A stretch of DNA of 44,271 nucleotides. Source: a virus. Taxonomy: Duplodnaviria; Heunggongvirae; Uroviricota; Caudoviricetes. Positions 6,066 to 35,100 of this stretch are shown in pieces (the first letter of the stretch is position 1; every line of letters begins with the position of its first letter). Where the stretch lies: IMG/VR virus record IMGVR_UViG_2565956725_000004. One strand, 5' to 3'. The translations under genes were made by a program, and so were the position numbers. Below the pieces are notes generated by a model that saw nothing but the letters and a program-made list of their open reading frames with translations, did not search any database and was not told the origin of the DNA.

Positions 6066-6428
6066 TTAATGACCTGCTGCGCGTAGTTTTCCGTCAGGTT
6101 CACCGGCAAGAGTCAGTAATTGTCCCTGGTCTTCCTGCAGAATAGTCAGACGACCACCGCGATTGACATACATCGGCGTTTCGGTGGTGTCTTCTTCGGA
6201 AATTTTCCCGCGGTTAGTCGGGCGAACATATGAGAGTTTGTGTTTGATTTTCACACGGTTCTCATCAAATGGTTCGATTTCCAGGTTGAGTGAGACCTTA
6301 CCTTTGGTTTTCGTGTTCATCACACCGGAAGCGACTTCACTGAGAACTGCGCCGATTTTGGTTTCAAATACGCCGCCGTCCAGCTCCCCGATAAATGCCT
6401 GCACATCAGTACTGCGTTCGCTAGCCAT
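6066..6428 (-). CDS. Hypothetical phage protein (YfdP-like position)
   Basis: Start placed at the internal Met (MASERSTDVQ) at 6428 because AGGAG lies 7-12 nt upstream; the longer ORF-track extension to 6746 has no ribosome-binding site and improbable composition. Confidence 0.6.
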   Translation of the reverse strand: MASERSTDVQAFIGELDGGVFETKIGAVLSEVASGVMNTKTKGKVSLNLEIEPFDENRVKIKHKLSYVRPTNRGKISEEDTTETPMYVNRGGRLTILQEDQGQLLTLAGEPDGKLRAAGH

Positions 6429-6896
6429 TTTGCTGCTCCTCATCATATCGACCCTGCAAGGTCGGTTGGTTTCTCCACAAAACAGAGAAGAACACCTGCG
6501 GTGGCAGCCGCCCGGATGGATTGGGTTATGAGCCCGTCGTCCGGTGATGCTCTTCTCTGTTTTGTAAAAAGAGCGGTACCAGCCGGAAGCAAGGGTACAA
6601 GCTGGTACCGCCAGGACTACACACAGCATAAAGTTGTGGTGCCGGGTGCCTCCCGGTGCCTGGCGAAGGTTGCACACCAGGCGGGTGGGTATCCACAGAA
6701 GGTCGACTGTCAGCCTCAACCTTAACCCGCGTGCGCTGAGCCGCATTCACCACAACGCTAAGGATTCTCTCTGGTTGAAAATACTTAGCTGTTATGTGCC
6801 TGCTTTTAGCCACATCAGGCGAGGTGGGCCTGGTTATTCCCCAACAACAAGGATTCGGCTAATCTGGATGACTCTGTTCTTAGAGGGGATAATTAA

Positions 6897-7409
6897 ATGG
6901 GAGCGATTTATGTTAAACGTTTGATTCTGTCGGTAGCACTGATAATACCGATAGCATCCAATGCTTCTGATGCTTTGAACCAGCCGAGCAGTAGTCTAAA
7001 TGATGGTGTTGAGACTTTTTTTATTTCCTGCTTTGATATGCCTCAGGAAACAACTACTGATATGGACGCTTGTCAGAGAGTTCAGTTAGCTCAGGTTAGT
7101 TGGGTTAAGAATAAGTATTCGGTGGCCGCCCTGAATCGTTTGAAACAAGACAACAAGGATGATCCACAGCGTCTGCAGGAATTAACTGCTTCTTTTAACG
7201 CGGAAAGTGAAGCTTGGACAGAATTAATTGAGAAAGCGTCAAAGTCCGTCCAGGTTGATTATGCAGGAGGAACTATAGCTGGCACTGCAGTTGCATCACG
7301 TCAAATTGGTCTTCTGGAATTACAATCCCACGATATCTGGGAGCACTGGCTACGATTCGAGGACTCAACTCCTCCTCTTTTGCCAGAACCAAAGTTCAAA
7401 TCTGAGTAA
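6897..7409 (+). CDS. Secreted or periplasmic moron protein (possible DUF1311/LprI-like)
   Basis: 170-aa ORF with N-terminal signal-peptide-like hydrophobic segment; transcribed against the flanking leftward operon; followed by a strong terminator. Confidence 0.55.
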   Translation: MGAIYVKRLILSVALIIPIASNASDALNQPSSSLNDGVETFFISCFDMPQETTTDMDACQRVQLAQVSWVKNKYSVAALNRLKQDNKDDPQRLQELTASFNAESEAWTELIEKASKSVQVDYAGGTIAGTAVASRQIGLLELQSHDIWEHWLRFEDSTPPLLPEPKFKSE

Positions 7410-7435
7410 TAAGTCATCCAGATTGTTAAAGAGCG

Positions 7436-7459
7436 AAGCGTCCTATAGGGCGCTTTTTT
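7436..7459 (+). terminator. Rho-independent terminator after the secreted moron gene
   Basis: 8-bp stem AAGCGTCC/GGGCGCTT (one G-U) with TATA loop, followed by a T-run. Confidence 0.6.
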
Positions 7460-7633
7460 GTTGCTAACGAATCATCCTGGACTTCATATGCCCCAGGCGG
7501 CTACTTCGTGGTCGTCCTGACTGTTCGTTTTTGACATTTACTGACCGCTTACGACACATGCACCATGCACCGTGTTGCAACCAGATTTTGTTGTAATCCT
7601 GTAGTTGGTCTGGAACAAAAGATAAAATTAAAA

Positions 7634-7670
7634 TGCGAGATGTGCAAGCAATATTTTGCGAGATGTGCAA
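7634..7670. promoter_or_regulatory. Candidate left operator (oL): two exact 14-bp direct repeats
   Basis: TGCGAGATGTGCAA at 7634..7647 and 7657..7670; half-sites resemble the TTGCG/CGCAA motifs in the cI-cro intergenic region. Confidence 0.45.
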
Positions 7671-7724: not shown

Positions 7725-8417
7725 TTAATTATGTCTCTTAAGGGTTTGCGACTGACTGATTAAGACCTTTCCAAAGACCATGAATCGGTGTTCGTTTTCG
7801 CTAGTAATTCCCCATTCACGGTAAATCTGGTTATCAGAAATCACCAGCAGTTTGTCAGGAATCATTTGAAGTCTTTTAACGTATATTTTGTCATCAAAAC
7901 CAAAGACATATATACCATCACCATCAAACTGATTGATGCTGACATCAACGAAGATGAGATCTCCTGGCTCAATGGTTGGACACATACTGTCCCCACGAAC
8001 GTTGATAACTTTGATGTGATTGGCTGGTCGTCCGCCGAACATTGATACAGCATTATCAGTTCTGTATTCGATGGCATGAATCACATCAATGACATCACCG
8101 CCCTGGATAAGGCCATTTCCCGCACTGGCACTGATATCCAGCATTTCAATACGGAACACATCCTTCACCTGCGCAACATCCTCATCATTACTGTTTTTAT
8201 ATACAGTATTACTTTTGAGGGCAGAGGTAAAGAGATCAGCAATATCAACACCTAAGCTCTTGGCAATATTACTCAGTGTTTGTTCGGTAAATTGTTTCTG
8301 CTTACCCGTTTCTAAGCGCGAGATGTTCGCCGCATCTACTCCTATTGCTTCAGCGAGATCGGCGATTTTCATGTTCTTCGCTTGGCGAAGTTGTCTGACT
8401 CGGTTTCCTATGTTCAT
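7725..8417 (-). CDS. cI: CI-like prophage repressor (XRE HTH N-terminus, LexA-like S24 peptidase C-terminus)
   Basis: 230-aa ORF; N-terminal HTH (QLRQAKNMKIADLAEAIGVDAANISRLETGK); C-terminal S24-type Ser/Lys autocleavage region (GDSM ... KR); divergent from cro. Confidence 0.9.
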   Translation of the reverse strand: MNIGNRVRQLRQAKNMKIADLAEAIGVDAANISRLETGKQKQFTEQTLSNIAKSLGVDIADLFTSALKSNTVYKNSNDEDVAQVKDVFRIEMLDISASAGNGLIQGGDVIDVIHAIEYRTDNAVSMFGGRPANHIKVINVRGDSMCPTIEPGDLIFVDVSINQFDGDGIYVFGFDDKIYVKRLQMIPDKLLVISDNQIYREWGITSENEHRFMVFGKVLISQSQTLKRHN

Positions 8418-8437: not shown

Positions 8438-8500
8438 TTGCGTGATAAGCAAATCAACTTGCGCAAAACACTTGCGTGAAATAACATGCATAACGCGCAA
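8438..8500. promoter_or_regulatory. Candidate right operator/promoter region (oR, pR/pRM) between cI and cro
   Basis: Repeated TTGCG/CGCAA half-sites: TTGCGTGATAAGCAA (8438..8452), palindrome TTGCGCAA (8459..8466), TTGCG (8472..8476), CGCGCAA (8494..8500). Confidence 0.5.
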
Positions 8501-9319: not shown

Positions 9320-10152
9320 ACAGTTTAACGGCAAATAACCGTTTGTCGCAACAGCTGGTGGTCAGTGTCGCTGCACACCTGTTGTTACGGCATGAATGCA
9401 GATTACCAAATCACCTGGCTGTAAGTAACCACAGAGAACTTTACCTGACTGTGGGGGGCGAGTTGTGCAGGAACTTAACCGCTGGTTTCGTGACGGAAGA
9501 GGACTTTATGTTCATGTTATTCGTTGGGAGCCAGAAACACAGCGCGTTATCTATCTTCGCAAAGACTACCCGCATGAGTGCTTTAGTCCTTTGTGGAAAT
9601 TCAGGCGTGATTTTGTTGAGTGTGAAGGACCACCAGCACATTGATTCTGCCATTCCGGGACGTTACACTGTTCAGGCACCTTATAAAGCGGGTGCCGGGA
9701 TTGGCGTCCTGGAAATGTTATCGGCGATATATGACGCGCCAGCGTCTTTTTTATCGTCTGCGTCTGCGCACACCCAAATTATGGTGGGCTGGACGGGGGC
9801 ACTGAAAGGTGCGCCGGTTTCCGATAACGCCGGTTACGCCAACCCCGTTCAGTTCACCACCAGCGAAATTGGCGTTTCCGGTGGTGAAGGTAATTCACTG
9901 TTATCGGAGGCTGCCATCATGGCTACTGTCCCAGCCCTCACTCGTCTGAATGATGAAGACTTACATAAACTCAGTTATGTAACAACTGCACTACGTGCTC
10001 TGCGCAAGGTAACTCTTTCGGATCCGCAGGCGCATCAGGTTCTGGTAGAAACCCTTCTTAACTTGCAGGCTGAACGTATCCGTTTGGCGGATAAGGCTAA
10101 TTTTCATATTCACCGTCTCCTGAATATCAGCGGAGGGCATCGTCATGCTTAA
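9316..10152 (+). CDS. Hypothetical protein, start uncertain
   Basis: 278-aa ORF with typical enterobacterial codon usage in its distal two-thirds; the proximal part overlaps a plausible small ORF in another frame (9465..9644), so the true start may be downstream. Confidence 0.4.
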   Translation: MNSLTANNRLSQQLVVSVAAHLLLRHECRLPNHLAVSNHRELYLTVGGELCRNLTAGFVTEEDFMFMLFVGSQKHSALSIFAKTTRMSALVLCGNSGVILLSVKDHQHIDSAIPGRYTVQAPYKAGAGIGVLEMLSAIYDAPASFLSSASAHTQIMVGWTGALKGAPVSDNAGYANPVQFTTSEIGVSGGEGNSLLSEAAIMATVPALTRLNDEDLHKLSYVTTALRALRKVTLSDPQAHQVLVETLLNLQAERIRLADKANFHIHRLLNISGGHRHA

Positions 10153-34356: not shown

Positions 34357-35100
34357 ATGACACAGACAGAATCAGCGATTCTGGCGCACGCCCGGCGATG
34401 TGCGCCAGCGGAGTCGTGCGGCTTCGTGGTGAGAACGCCGGAAGGGGAAAGATATTTTCCCTGCGTGAATATCTCCGGTGAGCCGGAGGAGTATTTCCGG
34501 ATGTCGCCGGAGGACTGGCTGCGGGCAGAGACGCAGGGTGAGATTGTGGCGCTGGTCCACAGTCATCCCGGTGGTCTGCCCTGGCTGAGTGAGGCCGACC
34601 GGCGGCTGCAGGTGCAGAGTGATTTGCCGTGGTGGCTGGTCTGCCGGGGTGAGATTCATAAATTCCGCTGTGTGCCGCATCTTACCGGGCGGCGCTTTGA
34701 GCACGGGGTGACGGACTGTTACACGCTGTTCCGGGATGCTTACCATCTGGCGGGGATTGAGATGCCGGATTTTCATCGTGAGGATGACTGGTGGCGTCAT
34801 GGTCAGAATCTCTATCTGGATAATCTGGAGGCCACAGGGCTGTATCAGGTGCCGTTGTCAGCGGCGCAGCCGGGCGATGTGCTGCTGTGCTGCTTTGGTT
34901 CATCGGTGCCGAATCATGCCGCTATTTACTGTGGTGACGGCGAGCTGCTGCACCATATTCCTGAACAACTGAGTAAACGAGAGAGGTATACCGACAAATG
35001 GCAGCGACGCACACACTCCCTCTGGCGTCACCGGGCATGGCGCGCATCTGCCTTTACGGGGATTTACAACGATTTGGCCGCCGCATCGACCTTCGTGTGA
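34357..35100 (+). CDS. K: Tail assembly protein K (JAB/MPN and NlpC/P60-like)
   Basis: MTQTESAILAHARRCAPAESCGFVV ... ALVHSHPGG matches lambda K. Confidence 0.9.
   Translation: MTQTESAILAHARRCAPAESCGFVVRTPEGERYFPCVNISGEPEEYFRMSPEDWLRAETQGEIVALVHSHPGGLPWLSEADRRLQVQSDLPWWLVCRGEIHKFRCVPHLTGRRFEHGVTDCYTLFRDAYHLAGIEMPDFHREDDWWRHGQNLYLDNLEATGLYQVPLSAAQPGDVLLCCFGSSVPNHAAIYCGDGELLHHIPEQLSKRERYTDKWQRRTHSLWRHRAWRASAFTGIYNDLAAASTFV

Follow-up and report, generated by a model that had tools for sequence, protein, structure and literature searches.

A divergent relative of the STnc100 prophage small RNAs in the modular leader of a phage early-left operon

What occupies the 468 bp that separate a yfdP-like gene from a rightward moron in the early-left region of the tailed-phage genome IMGVR_UViG_2565956725_000004 (IMG/VR; 44,271 nt, the whole of which we analyzed and call the window)? 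A first-pass annotation, made from the sequence alone, had described this interval (6429-6896) as GC-rich, rich in inverted repeats and without a credible open reading frame (ORF), and had proposed that it is a structured RNA—a small RNA (sRNA) or the leader of the leftward operon—or else a recombination or protein-binding site. We find that the interval does not code for protein; it forms the leader of the leftward (PL) early operon, reads in the minus-strand sense and is assembled from modular RNA elements, and its core is a divergent sister (“type B”) of the prophage sRNA family STnc100/PasD.

The family relationship becomes visible in Rfam below the gathering thresholds, at which nothing in the interval is matched (isrK and C4 are, elsewhere in the window). 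A covariance-model search had been suggested by the first-pass annotation, and in a permissive E-value scan of that kind the STnc100 model (RF02076) aligns end to end (model positions 1-206) with the minus strand at 6786-6564, scoring 45.4 bits (E = 3e-8), just under the gathering score of 47 bits. A 22-mer, CACCGGGAGGCACCCGGCACCA, which comprises the P5 hairpin and the 3' strand of the closing helix P1 (Table 1), occurs exactly and once in the window, at 6658-6637 on the minus strand, and shuffles of the window hold no match to it even with three mismatches allowed. The same 22-mer is present exactly in at least 120 IMG/VR contigs (57 flank clusters), and the loci carrying it include genuine STnc100 copies of 70-165 bits, also with the 5' GGUGAAU motif. 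Copies anchored on it have in common a P1 helix of the form (N)GUGGUG/CACCAC(N), an AAU junction, a P2 hairpin, a variable middle, P4 immediately ahead of the 22-mer and an invariant P5. The minimum free energy (MFE) fold of the window core recovers P1, P4 and P5, and it also predicts a local hairpin (AAGGUUGA/UCGACCUU) that competes with a pseudoknot, AAGGUUG/CAACCUU. Against this background the GGTGCC/CCCGG motifs listed as repeats in the first-pass annotation, which are indeed there as the tandem CCGGGTGCCT / CCCGGTGCCT at 6642-6661, are one invariant hairpin (P5) plus the closing helix of the core RNA. Strand, RNA family and the identity of these repeats with P5 and the closing helix are thus what the present analysis adds to that description.

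Compensatory changes among related prophages, which had been named as a way to check the structural proposal, are found in the helices and in the pseudoknot across dozens of independent phage lineages. In the pseudoknot, the P4 loop pairs with a strand just after P2 in STnc100-type (“type A”) copies or just after the 5' strand of a further helix, P3, in type B copies. Because MAFFT misaligns the variable middle of type B lineages, we assessed covariation by per-sequence parsing with a permutation control, in which the longest complement to each loop within the corresponding stretch of its own sequence was compared with that obtained after re-pairing across lineages (shuffling within each sequence had too little power for helices of 5-7 bp). 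The complement averages 6.36 nt within the same sequence and 4.28 nt between lineages (66 lineages), and none of 5000 permutations reaches the observed mean. The partners change together in more than 20 sequence versions, e.g., AAGGUUG/CAACCUU in the window, AAGGCUG/CAGCCUU in phiES15, GACUGACAAA/UUUGUCAGUC in locus L016, AUCAGCG/UGCUGGU in Stx-phage copies and CCAGUC/GACUGG in Klebsiella copies. Elsewhere in the fold, among 74 type A sequences, the P1 pair adjoining the invariant part is A-U in 32, G-C in 31 and G.U in 8; P3 occurs as GGGU/ACCC, GGGG/CCCC, GGAA/UUCC and GGC/GCC; and in phage LLS the P5 stem has become GGUGG/CCACC around an unchanged AGGCA loop. Such covariation of helices and pseudoknot indicates selection on an RNA fold, and P1, P4 and the pseudoknot of the window are supported by it family-wide. 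The pseudoknot is not part of the Rfam STnc100 structure, yet it is present in members of that family.

The window copy is nonetheless not a canonical STnc100. The type A P2 hairpin, CCCCC-UGUGCGG-AGGGG after GGUGAAU, has no match in the window even with three mismatches, and its place is taken by AAUGCGGCUCAGCGCACGCGG, i.e., UGCG-GCUCAG-CGCA instead of CCCCC...GGGG. Replacement of P2 and addition of P3 define type B, which we find in the window, in SfIV/SfV-like prophages of Escherichia coli and Shigella, in ST64B, in phiES15 and in several IMG/VR lineages; none of the type B loci scanned reaches the Rfam gathering threshold. No second copy, of type A or of the type C described below, was found elsewhere in the window.

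Both halves of the interval fold better than shuffled sequence when read as minus-strand RNA: 6760-6629 reaches -58 kcal/mol (z = -2.70; equalled by 1 of 200 shuffles) and 6632-6440 reaches -83.6 kcal/mol (z = -6.14; equalled by 0 of 200). The transcribed strand is the minus strand, as given by the G.U pairs and the downstream U-tract. From 5' to 3' on this strand follow an element that we call H0, a hairpin P0, the pseudoknotted core, a linker, a terminator-like hairpin T1, a 25-bp hairpin and the ribosome-binding site (RBS) of yfdP. The yfdP-like gene itself (6066-6428, minus; its product matches phrog_204) closes the interval on the left and the moron (6897-7409) on the right, and beyond the moron lie a cI-like repressor gene (7725-8417, minus) and then cro-like and cII-like genes. 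Two copies of the operator (TTGCACATCTCGCAA), at 7634-7647 and 7657-7670, and a related one at 8439-8452 put PL near 7620 in leftward orientation, and hence the interval in the leader of the leftward early operon. The GC peak sits where it had been reported, with 0.53-0.60 over 6400-6800 vs 0.37-0.49 in the flanks. With the yfdP-leader module included, the 468-bp interval has some match in 2781 of 5426 complete E. coli genomes.

Might the region encode protein after all? A 226-aa ORF (6066..6746) with an ATG start spans it and could be read as an N-terminal extension of YfdP; the SfIV record (L002 2138-3050) annotates just such a 681-bp long form of yfdP along with an overlapping plus-strand ORF, the frame upstream of sb37 in ST64B is open too, and the PGAP pipeline records a pseudogene, “frameshifted hypothetical protein,” at L006 3015-3325 (equivalent to window ~6443-6753), which would suggest a decayed gene. 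We reject a coding role, to which we give next to no credence. The four overlapping ORFs have no Pfam match (0 of 4), high GC alone explains the long open frames, and yfdP is served by a strong GAGGAG of its own at 6441-6436. The frame across the homologous core is not kept (…QAPGGTRHHNF… in the window vs …PDTGRHPAPQRY… in ST64B), mEp460 has two stop codons in the frame of the yfdP extension, and phiES15 carries the same RNA upstream of kil instead of yfdP. Substitutions, moreover, are compensatory across helices and not codon-patterned. The first-pass view that this gap lacks a credible ORF therefore stands, as does its preference for a structured non-coding RNA. Recognition of the RNA corrects the PGAP pseudogene and the hypothetical-ORF annotations in phage records; in mEp460, gp36 and gp37 overlap a type C RNA.

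Table 1. Elements of the early-left leader and their positions in the window.
Feature	Position	Strand	Identified by
Left arm of 24-nt inverted repeat (79% complementary; AATCTGGATGAC...)	6861-6884; partner 7401-7424
Hairpin CCUUGUUGUU-GGGG-AAUAACCAGG, just 5' of H0	6852-6829	minus	structure read by eye
Element H0, CCACCUC-GCCUGAUGUGGCUAAAAGCAGGC	6827-6798	minus	exact-pattern scan
Hairpin P0, GCUAAGUAUUUUC / GAGAAUCCUUAGC, directly 5' of core	6789-6757	minus	inverted repeat
STnc100-like RNA core (type B), ~124 nt	6756-6633	minus	Rfam match, 22-mer, covariation, MFE fold
P1, closing helix, 9 bp	6756-6748 with 6641-6633	minus
Junction AAU	core	minus
P2	within 6747-6732	minus
P3	6730-6725 with 6686-6681	minus
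Pseudoknot	6723-6717 (AAGGUUG) with P4 loop 6672-6666 (CAACCUU)	minus
P4 hairpin, CCUGGUG/CGCCAGG	6681-6659	minus
P5, CCGGG-AGGCA-CCCGG	6656-6642	minus
Single-stranded linker, motif CUGUGUGUAGUC at 6626-6615	6632-6613	minus
Intrinsic-terminator-like hairpin T1, then CUCUUUUUAC	6612-6564	minus	inverted repeat, fold, Rfam terminator stem
Long hairpin, yfdP 5' leader	6565-6477	minus	inverted repeat, fold (z = -6.14), RNAalifold
Small hairpin (6466-6447), RBS GAGGAG (6441-6436), spacer to yfdP start codon (6428)	6466-6429	minus	sequence, fold

Downstream of the core, both inverted repeats of the first-pass annotation turn out to be RNA hairpins. The shorter, reported as 10 bp, was correctly located and measures 11 nt of perfect complementarity (6573-6583 / 6601-6611); it is the stem of a terminator-like hairpin with a U-tract after it on the minus strand. 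This hairpin, T1, has a G+C-rich stem of 12-13 bp and a loop of 15-17 nt (stem 6612-6572, then CUUUUUAC at 6571-6564), and the terminator stem of the Rfam model aligns here; the loop, at more than 8 nt, is too long for the consensus terminator scan, which did not report it. In relatives the terminator stems differ by lineage, with a G+C-rich stem and a U-run in each case. Among 31 distinct type B downstream flanks, 21 contain the linker motif CUGUGUGUAGUC with a terminator behind it, and the same combination comes after four type C elements. Additional terminator-like hairpins are seen in ST64B (L001 ~2885-2930, minus; CUGGCGG...CCGCCAGCUUUUUC) and in LLS (L253 ~2330-2375, minus; CUGGCUG...CAGCCAGCUUUUUAAG), so that these two leaders have two terminators, and no protein gene, ahead of yfdP.

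The longer repeat, 15 bp and perfect as described (6477-6491 / 6551-6565), extends to 25-nt arms (6477-6501 / 6541-6565; 84% complementary) and is the conserved hairpin of the yfdP 5' leader. As RNA it has 25 consecutive basal pairs, extending to 6570-6472 and thereby absorbing the U-tract of T1, and an apical part conserved in sequence; RNAalifold on the window, ST64B, LLS and phiNP gives 36 pairs, four of them with compensatory double changes. It accompanies yfdP under other upstream sequences (Stx2c phages, mEp460, LLS, phiNP) and is present in phages that have no type B core. In the PL transcript of lambda, RNase III cleaves a long duplex just upstream of a ribosome-binding site. The window hairpin resembles the lambda RNase III leader hairpins (N leader, sib) as a near-perfect 25-bp duplex in a PL transcript and directly upstream of an RBS; it differs in having no sequence similarity to them and in pairing, in addition, the U-tract of the preceding terminator. 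By this analogy it is probably an RNase III-type processing or stability element that would be cleaved.

Upstream of the core the leader is equally modular. At the place of P0, ST64B has a hairpin of other sequence (GAUAAGAGUUUUUC / GAGAGAACUCUUAUC). The H0 pattern, CCACC(U/G)C-GCCUGAUGUGGNUAAAAGCAGGC (30 nt), recurs in at least 120 IMG/VR contigs and in 98 phage records, among them lambda (J02459 34397-34429), HK620, HK140, HK446 and SPN9CC, and in phage LLS (L253 ~2395-2425, minus) it lies ~18 nt after the PL start. Lambda 34397-34429, between the start of sieB and ral, is ~94% identical to window 6827-6798 over ~32 nt and holds the same position; we know of no function assigned to it, and in contrast to the window no STnc100-like core lies beside it. 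H0 always borders the slot of a rightward gene inside the PL operon (sieB in lambda, the moron in the window), and one or two G-loop repeat units like the hairpin at 6852-6829 precede it in related phages, lambda included. It may form an H-type pseudoknot (CCAC/GUGG plus GCCUG/CAGGC), a possible structure in which we found no covariation. In several loci an extended -10-like TGGTATNCT can be read in the reverse complement of H0, where it lies upstream of the rightward gene.

The two arms of the 24-nt inverted repeat flank the moron, and in relatives the slot holds other genes or none. The moron product has a signal peptide, matches phrog_7681 (unknown function) and shows a sub-threshold Pfam likeness to the lysozyme inhibitor LprI (E = 0.006; 17.3 bits, cut-off 22); a clean intrinsic terminator (7435-7456, plus) follows the gene. 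Nearer to PL, a leader segment ACGAACAGUCAGGACGACCACGAAGUAGCCGCCUGGGGCAUAUGAAGUCCAGGAUGAUUCGU occurs at 7462-7540 in the window (minus); ST64B (L001 3094-3176, minus) and phiNP (L252 ~2700-2780, minus) conserve it, and there it begins directly at the PL start.

Within this leader the core behaves as an optional, exchangeable cassette. Leaders with H0, linker and T1 and no core exist (L282, L309; the linker motif there follows H0 directly), which makes the core optional. Identity to Stx2c phages and mEp460 stops exactly at 6613, and mEp460 carries, at the exact place of the window type B and between the same flanking modules, a third subtype. This type C (L129 3203-3336, minus; L131-L250), found by a scan with the shared 5' motif, has invariant ends GUGGUGAAUGCGCAGGCUGAUGCGC ... 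GCCGGAGAUCAGCACCGGCCACCAC around 63 distinct inserts of 16-166 nt that fall into 39 unrelated clusters; the smallest element measures 68 nt (L221). P1, the AAU junction and the position of P5 are shared features, and the one locus scanned against Rfam (mEp460) gave no match even at E <= 10. In type C the loops of P2 (GCUGAU) and P5 (AUCAGC) are complementary to each other, and this complementarity is conserved without covariation (a compensating change is seen in one variant and not in another, and a third is without the partner). A 29-nt stretch in the inserts of L216, L194 and L204 matches E. coli 16S rRNA 254-282 (helix 11 region) at 86-90% identity, with a best E-value of 4.7e-6 against that single rRNA; the insert of L248 is tRNA-like by eye and is not called by ARAGORN.

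A census of neighboring ORFs puts types B and C downstream of cI-like repressors and upstream of yfdP/Q/R, and types A and C downstream of Q or RusA and upstream of holin, lysozyme and Rz genes, always in the sense of the operon and with no partner protein consistently encoded beside them. Type A copies can form tandem arrays (four copies in L014, three in L022, both beside tRNA genes), and of 89 type A upstream regions 18 show a good sigma-70 promoter, its -10 ending 6-9 nt ahead of the RNA. Other Rfam sRNAs cluster closely with STnc100 copies in late regions: AgvB is convergent and immediately after STnc100 at L055 7075-7327, and isrJ lies directly after the Q gene and ahead of STnc100 at L128 3812-4164. 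The window has an sRNA pair of its own downstream of the cII-like gene, i.e., isrK (63.7 bits; 9676-9752, plus) and, adjacent to it, the C4 antisense RNA (79.8 bits; 9777-9864, plus), both above their Rfam gathering scores, which is the IsrK / C4-antirepressor type of immunity module; the pair is also present in mEp460 and L059, and ST64B has isrK alone within the stretch fetched. The K-12 prophage CPS-53 (L130 7248-7604) keeps yfdP and its RBS while the STnc100-like core, the terminator and the long hairpin are absent; it was dropped as a source of expression data, since K-12 data sets cannot inform on an element that is not there.

What, then, would such a core do? We favor, at a probability of about 0.55, the reading that it belongs functionally as well as structurally to the wider STnc100/PasD family, i.e., that it is a prophage sRNA of the Hfq type, drawn from the PL transcript and with a 3' end set by termination. 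Inactivation of the cI-like repressor would let PL transcribe leftward, antisense through the moron, and make the RNA. Most polymerases would stop at T1 (end near 6566), leaving the stem-loop and U-tail of an Hfq-bound 3' end, and 5' trimming would yield a stable species of ~130-230 nt that may act in trans, as do its relatives STnc100 and PasD, both Hfq-associated, base-pairing sRNAs. Polymerases that read through would transcribe the 25-bp hairpin, with the T1 U-tract engulfed in it, and cleavage at this likely RNase III site would part the sRNA from the yfdP-yfdQ-yfdR message.

Precedents exist within the family. STnc100, a prophage sRNA of Salmonella and of E. coli lambdoid prophages, resembles the window core in the full-length model alignment, CACCGGGAGGCACCCGGCACCA, the 5' GGUGAAU, P1, P4 with the pseudoknot and P5, in a linker and then an intrinsic terminator ~25-70 nt after the core, and in being prophage-borne and in phage-operon sense. 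In enterohemorrhagic E. coli (EHEC), the eleven annotated STnc100 copies are expressed as RNAs of 159-210 nt, one of them seen by Northern blot (PMC5331693). Literature searches on sRNAs in ST64B or SL1344 returned nothing on this locus. PasD, the only member of the family with direct evidence of Hfq-dependent stability and RNA partners (many by RIL-seq, in which interacting RNAs are ligated and sequenced; PMC8550237), has been proposed to be structurally homologous to STnc100, which places PasD1/PasD2 of enteropathogenic E. coli (EPEC) in the same wider family as the window core (bioRxiv 10.64898/2026.05.13.724894; our comparison is with the published description only). Neither is an exact counterpart, however. 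STnc100 lies between Q or stx and the lysis genes, whereas the window copy is single instead of tandem, is found in the early-left operon by the cI-like repressor and has no sigma-70-like promoter directly upstream; PasD is a late-region RNA linked to the Q antiterminator and lpxR genes.

Several observations weigh against this sRNA reading. The window copy misses the RF02076 gathering score, and its P2 is not that of STnc100. A sigma-70-like promoter within 130 nt upstream was found in 0 of 26 type B regions, so that an independent sRNA gene is not evident; the single promoter-like minus-strand match in the window (6916-6889) falls within the moron cassette, and such matches occur as often as expected by chance. 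The conserved linker also occurs without the core and may therefore be part of the leader and not an sRNA seed, and we found no complementary target for it inside the prophage. In ST64B and LLS, the extra terminator stands between PL/H0 and the element, where it would hinder transcription of the element.

The promoterless position is one reason to consider a cis-acting alternative in which the folded RNA would modify RNA polymerase, allowing it to pass T1 (and, in relatives, T0) into yfdP...int or, in the late operon, on towards the lysis genes. RNAs of this kind are known: put of HK022 suppresses termination in cis and is blocked by mutations in the rpoC zinc-binding domain, and EAR (eps-associated RNA) of Bacillales, a structured intra-operon RNA of ~120 nt, promotes read-through of downstream terminators. 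The superfamily formed by types A, B and C is found only at the head of the early-left operon (B, C) and in the interval from Q to lysis (A, C), always sense-oriented and always just upstream of terminators, and its elaborate pseudoknotted fold with invariant junctions and loops would be unusual for a seed-plus-terminator sRNA. Moreover, the window, ST64B, LLS and phiNP have no ORF from PL to yfdP and yet one or two intrinsic terminators, with no N-like gene between PL and these. We nevertheless regard processive antitermination as rather unlikely. Type A RNAs of ~190-210 nt end at the terminator directly after the element (model length 206; Northern blot, PMC5331693), which means that the element does not prevent termination there, and type A copies behave as stand-alone genes, tandem beside tRNA genes and in part with promoters; core-less leaders, for their part, retain H0, linker and T1. 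No Rfam antiterminator family matches even at E <= 10, and the parallel with EAR, which likewise has no match at that level and belongs to another phylum and context, is functional speculation. With putL/putR the core shares its setting—a structured RNA in the leader of an N-less early lambdoid operon, upstream of intrinsic terminators—and neither alignable sequence nor a fold: put measures ~70 nt, with two stem-loops at or near the promoter, vs ~124 nt with a long-range closing helix and a pseudoknot ~860 nt from PL. Put-like motifs, CGAAC(A/G)G and GGAUGA, are present only in the PL-proximal segment at 7540-7462; RNAalifold finds no fold common to this segment and putL/putR, its own folding is unexceptional (z = -1.4 and 0.0), and a put-like role for it is not supported. 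An apparent likeness of 6735-6700 to put stem II, noted by eye, was not borne out either.

The fallback of the first-pass annotation, a recombination or protein-binding site in the DNA itself, would explain the ends GTTGTGGTG...CACCACAAC and the invariant blocks as recombination boundaries, ends of a small mobile cassette or binding sites of a phage protein, the RNA fold being incidental. Its mosaic side is borne out: identity to Stx2c phages and mEp460 breaks off at one base, in mEp460 a type C element stands in for type B with the conserved ends unchanged, an inverted repeat encloses the moron, H0 marks the edge of a rightward-gene slot in many phages including lambda, and the core is cassette-like. 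For the structured core, however, a DNA site finds no direct support, and we consider it highly improbable as an explanation. The covariation includes G.U pairs valid on one strand and joint changes of the pseudoknot partners, which points to selection on a folded single strand rather than on sites in duplex DNA; the cI-like repressor has its operators at other positions; and cassette exchange is compatible with, indeed expected for, an RNA gene module. Another possibility is a protein-binding or decoy scaffold, in which P1, P2 and P5 would form a tRNA-like three-way junction displaying the variable middle to a host or phage protein, e.g., a processing enzyme or a defense nuclease. The anatomy of type C speaks for this—the shared P1, junction and P5 position around highly diverse inserts, the complementary P2 and P5 loops, the 16S rRNA-like stretch in three inserts—as does the adjacency of copies to phage tRNA arrays. 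But ARAGORN calls no tRNA-like gene (tRNA or tmRNA) in the window or in the elements tested, the loop complementarity lacks covariation, no partner protein is consistently adjacent, and the idea is speculation from anatomy; we hold it to be very unlikely.

A joint version of these ideas would unite types A, B and C as one phage scaffold-RNA superfamily, with a common P1 (GUGGUG/CACCAC), AAU junction, P2 and P5 around an exchangeable middle, whose cassettes head two antiterminated operons. Instead of seed pairing in the manner of a classical sRNA, the conserved pseudoknotted or tRNA-like scaffold would bind RNA polymerase or a host protein. If true, N-less lambdoid phages would possess a novel kind of processive antiterminator made of RNA alone, or else a decoy that displays variable inserts. 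We consider this claim, taken whole, unlikely.

Judged from sequence and structure, the window element is a structurally altered, relocated and sub-threshold relative of a known prophage sRNA family, set in a modular leader and with a predicted function. It widens the STnc100/PasD family by a subtype that scores below threshold and resides in the early-left operon. The more novel by-product is the three-subtype scaffold family itself: with one subtype absent from Rfam and a pseudoknot unannotated in the Rfam structure, the present model covers only a portion of a more extensive family of modular RNAs. The order of parts—promoter, structured RNA, terminator, long hairpin and first gene, with no N gene—further raises the question of how phages of the SfV/ST64B/mEp460 type carry expression of their leftward genes, to xis and int, past one or two leader terminators.

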